Made by a program: the position numbers and the translations under genes
Part shown: positions 17,700-17,893 of the stretch, one piece after another
Numbering within the stretch: the first letter of the stretch is position 1
Layout: each line of letters begins with the position of its first letter
From: Minisyncoccota bacterium
Lineage (GTDB): Bacteria; Patescibacteriota; Minisyncoccia; Phycocordibacterales; CSBR16-119
Assembly: GCA_041389105.1 (NCBI GenBank)
Contig: JAWKSO010000002.1
Span: 18,336-82,335, forward strand
Direction of reading: 5' to 3'
Length of the DNA: 64,000 bases
Notes under the pieces: model-generated
What the model was told of the DNA's origin: nothing
Database searches by the model: none
The model's input: only the letters and a program-made list of their open reading frames with translations

Positions 17700-17769
17700 T
17701 GCTGGATCGTCTAATGGTAGGACTGCGGTTTCTGTACCGCCTATCTAAGTCTGAGTCCTAGTCCAGCAG
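17700..17769 (+). tRNA. tRNA-Gln(CTG)-like, non-canonical
   Basis: Acceptor TGCTGGA/TCCAGCA and D-arm GTC-TAATGGTAG-GAC are present. The anticodon stem GCGGT/ACCGC encloses only 6 nt (TTCTGT), and the T-arm CTAAG-TCTGAGT-CCTAG has a mismatch and lacks TTC. Confidence 0.5.
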
Positions 17770-17893
17770 CACGAACGAAGTGAGTGATGCTGGACTAGAA
17801 AGAAGGGGTCTGGGAAACAAATGTTTCCCCGTGAGGAAAGCAGGACGAAGTCCGTCGGAAAACCGTGGGTTTCCGAGGTCCGTATGTCCAGCA
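17770..17893 (+). repeat. tRNA-3'-end-associated structured insert, copy E (family 2)
   Basis: TGCTGGACTAG (17788-17798) is the reverse complement of the tRNA 3' end CTAGTCCAGCA. The insert also has a GAAGGGGTCTGGGAAAC core, three hairpins, and a terminal GTCCAGCA (17886-17893) repeating the tRNA end. Confidence 0.6.

Follow-up and report, generated by a model that had tools for sequence, protein, structure and literature searches.

A family of small folded elements downstream of tRNA genes in Patescibacteria

Introduction

Integrative elements that use a tyrosine integrase to target tRNA genes leave the tRNA gene intact, carry a displaced copy of its 3' end at the opposite border of the insert, and are present in some relatives and missing from others. 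Such integrases are classically recognised by a direct repeat of the tRNA 3' end with its start in the T loop, which may run on past the gene. Here, we describe a family of folded elements from the Candidate Phyla Radiation (CPR, Patescibacteria) that has all of these traits, represented by two copies in a 64,000-nt stretch of a Minisyncoccota bacterium genome (GCA_041389105.1, contig JAWKSO010000002.1, positions 18,336 to 82,335 of the forward strand; hereafter the window, numbered from its first letter). Copy E lies behind a tRNA-Gln(CUG) gene at 17770-17893 on the plus strand, and copy D behind a tRNA-Asp(GUC) gene at 26703-26885 on the minus strand. Unlike the integrase-borne elements, the CPR insert measures only 100-190 nt and lacks integrase and cargo, carries in addition the tRNA 3' part in inverted orientation, by which a long palindrome is completed, and contains a conserved core that folds strand-specifically. 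CPR bacteria account for a large part of bacterial diversity, and mobile DNA is considered scarce in their genomes.

Three further kinds of described sequence bear comparison. The attP hairpins of CTXphi and IMEX and the attC sites of integrons work by folded single-strand integration. As in the CPR element, one strand is selected to fold, the stem reproduces the target duplex, and mismatches lie by the presumed crossover point (TCGAAC opposite GTGAGA, next to the core, in the CPR element); integration of a hairpin circle would moreover give the order of parts found here. The CPR element differs in targeting the tRNA T loop rather than dif or attI and in having no IntI or phage genes, and the resemblance is limited to mechanism as generally known for those systems. 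Identity with integron attC was rejected: the RYYYAAC/GTTRRRY boxes are unmatched, the TCGAAC and GTTCGA/GTGAGA boxes stand at the inner and not the outer stem end, and no integrase is nearby. Miniature transposable elements with inverted repeats (MITEs), REP/BIME sequences, Correia-type repeats and IS200/IS605-derived PATEs are likewise small, non-coding, multi-copy, intergenic and rich in hairpins, with identical copies at unrelated sites, some of them without target duplication. The CPR element, in contrast, lacks terminal inverted repeats of its own sequence and is flanked by copies of the target tRNA instead; the search for a transposase partner gave none, and its core is conserved across a superphylum. 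Finally, tRNA-like structures (the tmRNA domain, viral 3' ends, mascRNA and the Y-RNA module) also close a multi-hairpin junction with an acceptor/T-stem helix, but the CPR element has no T arm, D arm or conserved NCCA context, its helix is a perfect complement of the tRNA 3' strand and not the real 5' strand, it is usually separated from the tRNA by a terminator, and no tRNA-clan Rfam family matches it. Overall, the element works most like the tRNA-targeting integrative elements and the folded single-strand recombination sites.

Results and Discussion

Copy E is a genuine member of a widespread, apparently undescribed CPR family of 100-190-nt folded elements. The family was defined by a core consisting of NGAAG-GGGGTCG, hairpin A, CGTGGNGGAA and hairpin B, and was captured in a covariance model (R1) with a 71-copy seed, namely D, E and 69 sequences from other genomes. 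Both window copies, which are in the seed, score far beyond chance (D, 70.7 bits, E-value 2e-19; E, 57.6 bits, E-value 1.5e-15); these E-values rule out chance similarity and uphold the first-pass annotation of this DNA, made from its letters, in assigning the two copies a common core. Each of them has the core, sits 3' of a tRNA gene on the same strand, and is preceded by an inverted and followed by a direct copy of the tRNA end. R1 found no match in the window besides D and E. Its matches in relatives were limited to the orthologous copies in L125, a second assembly of this species (GCA_041389125.1), and to truncated ones in L001 and L003, which are Illumina-derived contigs of a related species from two different sequencing runs. 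Both of these contigs stop within hairpin A, as is expected because the element is a repeat.

A database scan with the core pattern GGGGTCNGGGAAACNNNNGTTTCCC returned at least 120 loci in GTDB species-representative genomes, nearly all of them metagenome-assembled genomes labelled Patescibacteria; labels among the matches listed cover Parcubacteria and Paceibacteria lineages, Saccharibacteria, Moranbacteria, Kazan and others. Even between CPR lineages that are very distant from each other, the core hardly varies. Two records in the set, L096 and L108 (the latter a 0.9-Mb contig), are labelled Bdellovibrionales and Gammaproteobacteria; we suspect mislabelled CPR sequence. The same pattern had 0 matches in 2.9 million IMG/VR viral contigs, INPHARED phages and PLSDB plasmids, which rules out a phage or plasmid origin. 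Rfam 15 gave nothing over the element, either in the window at the gathering threshold or at 17000-18600 with E<=10, and in 18 loci with other variants the only matches at the gathering threshold were tRNAs. JGI metagenomes contained 0 matches to E-specific orthologs; 15 metagenome loci there with the same tRNA-Gln 5' half belong to other lineages, have canonical tRNAs, and carry E in none. A published description of the element was not found in the open-access literature; subscription papers were not covered, so a prior description is possible.

Copy E opens with a spacer mini-hairpin, CACGAACGAAGTGAGTGA (17770-17787, plus strand, as are all parts of E), built of a CAC/GTG stem, tandem G.A pairs, AC/GT pairs and a GAA loop. 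It forms the centre of a palindrome made by the tRNA 3' end and its inverted copy, and similar mini-hairpin spacers occur at L058, L060 and L023. The inverted repeat (IR) that follows, TGCTGGACTAG (17788-17798), reads directly as the tRNA-Gln 3' end from position 73 back to about position 61 and matches, as had been noticed from the letters, 17758-17768 exactly in reverse complement; in L001 it has 12 nt. Next comes a purine-rich joiner, J1 (AAAGAAG-GGGTCT, 17799-17811), recognised in family alignments, for which the family consensus is NGAAG-GGGGTCG and the L001 sequence CGAAGGGGGTCG. The three hairpins proposed earlier are all present. Hairpin A (GGGAAAC-AAAT-GTTTCCC, 17812-17829) is matched by the covariance model and is joined by J2, CGTGAGGAAAGCA (17830-17842; family consensus CGTGGAGGAA, L125 GTGGAGGAAAGC), to hairpin X (GGAC-GAA-GTCC, 17843-17853), an optional insert with counterparts elsewhere in the family: L114, L042, L032 and L093 have GGGC-GAA-GCCC, GGAC-GTA-GTCC and GGC-GAA-GCC at this site. 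Hairpin B, TCGGAAAACC-GTG-GGTTTCCGA (17855-17876), is supported by compensatory changes across the family.

The copy ends in a direct repeat (DR) of the tRNA-Gln 3' end, TCCGTATGTCCAGCA (17879-17893), found by direct reading and the same in L125. Compared with the tRNA sequence, TCCTAGTCCAGCA, 13 of its 15 positions are identical, and the final 8 nt are perfect and pair with the IR. This is the 8-bp closing helix described before, TGCTGGAC at 17788-17795 with GTCCAGCA at 17886-17893. It does exist, but its value as a tRNA-like sign is lost: across the family, its two strands are copies, one inverted and one direct, of the 3' part of the tRNA that happens to lie upstream. The 106-nt segment is more stable than shuffled sequences (z = -2.8), and the whole 194 nt are more stable still (z = -4.3), folding with the tRNA 3' end paired to the inverted copy. 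Within the family, E belongs to the subfamily of L102, L093 and L042; its J1 is of the CGAAG type and its B hairpin is that of L093.

Copy D is anchored by a canonical tRNA-Asp(GUC) gene (26886-26960, minus strand; ARAGORN, Rfam 67.9 bits) and belongs to repeat family D12. In minus-strand order its parts are a terminator hairpin (26885-26843), a 12-nt IR, TGGGACTTGAAC (26830-26819), the core (26822-26753), the motif GTGAAAC (26734-26728), and a 25-nt DR, TCCCGTCGTTCGCGCAAATACAAAA (26727-26703), that contains the tRNA-Asp 3' end plus flank. The third hairpins of D and E differ in a compensatory way (TTCAAAACC/GGTTTTGAA versus TCGGAAAACC/GGTTTCCGA), as the first-pass annotation had it.

The same order recurs across the family: tRNA, terminator or mini-hairpin, inverted copy, core, direct copy. 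Just over half of the copies (64 of 123) lie downstream of a tRNA on the same strand, 7-180 nt away and typically at 60-75 nt; the anchoring tRNAs have about 20 identities, and the opposite orientation is almost never seen. Tandem copies also occur. The spacer holds the tRNA terminator hairpin or a CGAAG-type mini-hairpin. The inverted copy is antisense to the tRNA from position 53 (the T-loop start) onward and comprises the T loop of its own tRNA, the 3' strand of the T stem and a variable part of the acceptor strand; it usually spans -22 to -7 and ends, in most copies, 6 nt before the core. It matches the T-loop variants of its own tRNA, rare GTCCGA loops included. Where the tRNA and the direct copy differ in the T-loop region, the inverted copy agrees with the tRNA at 211 positions and with the direct copy at 26. 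The core runs NGAAG-GGGGTCG (in RNA, NGAAG-GGGGUCG), hairpin A, CGTGGNGGAA (in RNA, CGUGGNGGAA), optional hairpin X and hairpin B, often followed by a hairpin C and GTGAGAT (in RNA, GUGAGAU). The direct copy begins in the T loop or T stem and reaches the tRNA end, often entering the downstream flank; in many copies it extends 35-86 nt further, across a second terminator. Its left border is fixed in the T loop, and its right border varies from 0 to +86. A single long palindrome, often perfect, extends from the tRNA 3' part through the spacer into the inverted copy (-70 kcal/mol in L065); of 24 tRNA nucleotides, a median of 18 are paired with that copy.

Two variant architectures were seen beside this one. 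In class 2 (L019, L026 and L085, all from the Taylorbacteria record MHSB01, and L011, L041, L048, L064, L070, L109, L118, L121 and L124), the core lies off tRNAs between two similar K-turn-like hairpins, whose internal loops read AGAAT/GATGAA, and has TTTAAT-like borders. A separate MITE, whose inverted ends read GGGGACTGTTGCCGAATAGCG, interrupts L085. With their two similar K-turn-like hairpins, TTTAAT-like flanks and lack of target duplication, class-2 copies were compared with the PATE and omega-RNA sequences of IS200/IS605; no TnpA or TnpB was found near the 121 copies examined, and the tRNA-linked copies do not fit a derivation from IS200/IS605. In class 3 (L007, L009, L036, L038, L096 and L101), hairpin B is replaced by a larger conserved domain, GGGGTGACC...CTAGAGGGCGGAAGCCCTATAGA, also given as GGGGTGACC...CTAGAGGGCGGAAGCCCTATAGAAC. 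A small ORF in the element was considered and rejected: only one subfamily has GGAGG followed by NTG, and there the NTG forms the outer pair of hairpin B. Pairing of J1 with the hairpin A loop or of J2 with the hairpin B loop was rejected as well; the correlations follow subfamilies, and the commonest combination, GGG/GGGA, cannot pair.

The fold is supported by covariation. On the unfitted MAFFT alignment, RNAalifold returned hairpin A only, because variation in loop length had shifted hairpin B, and the structure was then named explicitly. On this basis, hairpin B has compensatory changes in 5 of 9 pairs, and the whole structure has 83 double-change cells compared to 23.7+-5.6 in shuffles (0 of 500 reached this value); controls with the structure slid along the alignment collapse. 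A model-fitted alignment of 114 copies, which is biased towards the model's own structure, gives compensatory changes in 15 of 17 pairs (hairpin A, 6 of 8, in divergent copies; hairpin B, 9 of 9). The tRNA-sense strand is the strand selected for folding. Hairpin A has GNRA loops on this strand in 52 of 118 copies and on the other in none, C-GNA-G mini-hairpins number 64 on this strand and 5 on the other, and G.U pairs are present on it. These features suit folded single-stranded DNA as well as RNA, because hairpins of the d(GCGAAGC) type are famously stable. Of the cloverleaf-like RNA suggested for copy E, there remains a discrete, conserved, strand-specifically folded unit whose hairpins covary in more than 100 homologs; a tRNA-like, CCA-tailed cloverleaf is not supported by the closing helix.

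Such a fold could belong to a functional non-coding RNA, made by read-through from the tRNA or from its own start, that acts as an antisense regulator or chaperone by pairing with the T loop and T stem of its cognate (pre-)tRNA, or as an acceptor/T-arm minihelix mimic for RNase P, the CCA-adding enzyme or a synthetase. Covariation and G.U pairs on the tRNA-sense strand, GNRA and UNCG loops, tandem G.A pairs and variable inserts at fixed sites speak for it, as do the near-invariance of the core over distant lineages and a 5' arm that tracks the T-loop variant of each tRNA, down to the rare GTCCGA. However, a terminator-like hairpin with a T run separates tRNA and element in 40 of 62 copies, and neither E nor D was found to have a promoter-like site before it; both results fit a function at the DNA level rather than as a transcript. 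The element is further found at only 2 of the 8 tRNA genes of the window, is missing at the same tRNAs in close relatives, occurs as identical copies at non-tRNA sites, has a closing helix that mostly stops short of the acceptor end, and offers no equivalent of a D arm or T arm. We therefore regard a functional RNA as a possible but rather unlikely explanation.

The element is mobile, or at least gained and lost. Copy D is present in the window and L125 and missing downstream of tRNA-Asp in L126, L129 and L130; copy E is present in the window, L125, L001 and L003 and missing after tRNA-Gln(CUG) in L126, L128 and L130. The latter three lack the HD, TrmB and NUDIX genes, with the tRNA-Gln turned around with respect to its neighbours. 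In the lineage of the window, L125 and L001 (window 16456-19576), the tRNA-Gln is reversed relative to LOG and DUF948 when compared with L126 (14238-15480) and L128 (15137-16003); the window tRNA-Gln is only about 78% identical to that of these relatives, with compensatory changes in the acceptor stem. This suggests that window 16456-19576 is a rearranged or acquired segment. At the tRNA-Asp site, L128 and L129 (L129 8025-8248; about 85% identity) have a group I intron in the anticodon loop (RF00028, 50.6 bits) and no copy D. In L126, an insertion of about 165 nt follows a tRNA-Met (8352-8576, minus strand), has at its end a 19-nt direct repeat, AATTCTCTCCCTCGACACA, of that tRNA's 3' end, and contains CGTGAGGAA and several hairpins with no R1 or Rfam match. 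It could not be tied to the family, since R1 does not match it, and it may be a divergent relative or a second family of the same habit.

Movement within a genome is visible as well. A single Niyogibacteria contig (L035) has two copies, one behind a tRNA-Asp and the other without an ARAGORN tRNA, that have unrelated arms and an identity of about 97% over the stretch bounded by GAAC in the inverted T loop and GTTC in the direct one; copies at different tRNAs of one genome thus have lineage-specific hairpins in common. MHSB01 contains three identical class-2 copies at unrelated non-tRNA sites without target duplication, and L109 has a 15-nt flanking repeat. These borders invite comparison with a SINE-like (short interspersed element) retroelement, in which a nick in the bottom strand of the T loop would prime cDNA synthesis on the element RNA and a second nick at a variable position would produce the direct repeat. 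The fixed left and variable right borders of the direct repeat, the conserved RNA-like core and the 15-nt duplication at L109 agree with target-primed reverse transcription of this kind. An inverted target copy and a perfect palindrome through the terminator are, in contrast, not products of its simple form; there is no A-rich or other 3' tail, the three MHSB01 copies lack a target duplication, and no reverse transcriptase recurs nearby. Such an origin is improbable.

Linked protein partners (integrase, transposase, reverse transcriptase, HNH) were ruled out by clustering the 1777 ORFs within +-3 kb of the 121 copies, which returned housekeeping genes and spurious ORFs over the element only. 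This also bears on whether E and D are attL/attR scars of an integrase-borne island that once occupied the tRNA gene, the GC-richer HD gene being what remains of its cargo. The direct repeat of the tRNA 3' end does start in the T loop, the G+C fraction of 17001-18000 is 0.447 compared to about 0.32 in the flanks, and the HD, TrmB and NUDIX genes and a 130-aa gene are missing between LOG and DUF948 in L126. Against this, the same core of about 70 nt recurs at the at least 120 loci with only hairpins between the repeats, a core that independent decay would not leave conserved and covarying each time, and no integrase is linked to it. The HD gene, moreover, lies upstream of the tRNA and outside the repeat-bounded unit. 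Between the tRNA and its displaced 3' copy there are 124 nt in E and about 160 nt in D, without an ORF, and the absence of integrase, cargo and recurrent neighbours led us to reject an integrase-borne island, a scar of which is the least probable of the origins weighed here.

We consider it more probable than any other single origin, at slightly better than even chances, that the family consists of non-autonomous mobile elements that insert at the tRNA T loop, maybe via a folded single-strand hairpin site. A single-stranded circle would fold so that its direct and inverted tRNA arms form a duplex that mimics the T-arm/acceptor region; this stem, with the core at one end and the small hairpin at the opposite one, would reproduce the stretch of the tRNA gene that begins in the T loop and passes its 3' end. 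Strand exchange in the T loop, by a recombinase provided in trans, would rebuild an intact tRNA from the element's own copy and push the resident 3' end to the far side. Arms for new tRNAs might be renewed by snap-back copying at the terminator hairpin, or by core exchange or gene conversion between resident copies. Integration of a folded circle is favoured because it is the simplest known process that gives the order tRNA, spacer, inverted copy, core, T-loop-like box and direct copy.

Several points weigh against insertion by a folded site. The recombination mechanism is an inference, and the copies examined show no recurrent link to a recombinase, transposase or reverse transcriptase. The renewal of tRNA-specific arms on moving to a different tRNA is not easily explained: core similarity follows the genome and not the tRNA identity (in the two L035 examples and on sequence inspection), so arm renewal needs gene conversion or snap-back copying. 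The terminator of D that resembles the empty-site allele of the relative L129 is the tRNA-adjacent and not the distal one, which fits only if the element came with arms that had been templated in a donor like L129. Finally, tandem G.A pairs and loops of the GNRA and UNCG types are classic RNA features and would suit an RNA role. A more speculative proposal, to which we give no more than a modest chance, is that these elements are a new class of protein-less hairpin cassettes of about 130 nt that would use a folded T-arm/acceptor replica as attachment site, have it re-templated, on any tRNA behind which they lie, by snap-back copying at the tRNA terminator, and spread among naturally competent CPR via a host recombinase; alternatively, the core might be a new ribozyme or protein-binding RNA targeted by the antisense arm.

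A superphylum-wide, multi-copy, conserved folded element beside tRNA genes that is missing from Rfam represents an annotation gap, and the tRNA fragments at its sites (partial 3' ends and inverted pieces) mislead tRNA finders and cause breaks in short-read assemblies. If the hairpin-attachment model is true, this would be the smallest known element to insert into tRNA genes while repairing them, and its sites would be new single-strand-folded recombination sites outside integrons and Xer-exploiting phages. If the element acts as RNA instead, it would be a class of tRNA-specific antisense or mimic RNAs with one dedicated copy per tRNA gene.

The tRNA-Gln(CUG) gene that anchors copy E (17700-17769, plus strand) had been called non-canonical for its 6-nt anticodon loop and its T loop without TTC. 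The letters of this assembly bear this out. ARAGORN, run as the first-pass annotation had proposed, reports a tRNA-??? with a 2-base anticodon at 17700-17770, which implies a 6-nt loop, TTCTGT; the T arm reads CTAAG-TCTGAGT-CCTAG, and the Rfam tRNA model RF00005 does not match 17700-17769 at the gathering threshold or at E<=10. A special tRNA, however, is not what they indicate. The L001 and L003 orthologs are canonical tRNA-Gln(CUG) genes with a 7-nt loop, TTCTGGT, and the T arm CTAGG-TTCGAGT-CCTAG; by direct reading they have all RF00005-type features (a 7-nt anticodon loop and a T-Psi-C-type T loop), and because of this the failure of the window tRNA to match RF00005 is attributed to the assembly. 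In the 15 metagenome loci with the same tRNA-Gln 5' half, the loop is TTCTGGT, 7 nt, in 15 of 15.

The assembly itself, which its release-factor-2 gene shows to be a Candidatus Paceibacterota metagenome-assembled genome, is indel-noisy. Compared to L001, 16250-17750 of the window has nine deletions of 1-2 nt (three in TrmB, five in the HD gene, and one that is the anticodon-loop G), and the P-loop of BipA has a 2-nt deletion. Over 21 kb, the window and L125 differ by 375 substitutions and 383 indel events, which run in both directions, lie about half in homopolymers, and break different genes in the two assemblies; the number of indels and the different broken genes argue for noise and not gene decay. 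Between 12900 and 36000, the frameshifted window genes are BipA (in its P-loop), TrmB, HD, NUDIX, a GT2 glycosyltransferase and a nucleotidyltransferase; example sites are 14672, 16291, 16355, 16483, 17149, 17378, 17450, 17473, 17485, 17734, 18181-18197 and 26359-26430. The HD/PDE-like gene, previously taken for a decayed cassette directly before the unit, has an intact 225-aa homolog with 90% identity in relatives, whose contigs (L001-L004) keep the gene order of the window. Most likely, then, the window assembly is of a noisy, long-read type, the decayed HD cassette is an assembly artefact, and the 6-nt anticodon loop and TTC-less T loop are errors in an ordinary tRNA-Gln(CUG) gene. The T loop reads GGTTCGAG in L125 and GTCTGAG in the window. 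One point tells against error in the anticodon loop: its CT-GT deletion is common to the window and L125, and it could therefore be real in the species and not a systematic error.

Other Features of the Window

Two tRNA-Ser genes (47444-47530 and 49566-49655, minus strand) have a 55-nt repeat over their 3' part in common; one has the anticodon ACT according to ARAGORN and is not matched by Rfam at the gathering threshold. They bracket a GC-richer (0.43-0.47) segment of 1.4 kb (48130-49540) without a long ORF, which may be another tRNA insertion or assembly noise. A standard tmRNA gene (59321-59702, plus strand; Rfam 119 bits) encodes the tag GKSNGLVKSPFQMKRGFALA. A GC-rich palindromic repeat, AGCCCCGGCGC....GCGCCGGGGCT, occurs three times in this AT-rich genome, at 3292-3316, 29954-29978 and 56492-56516.

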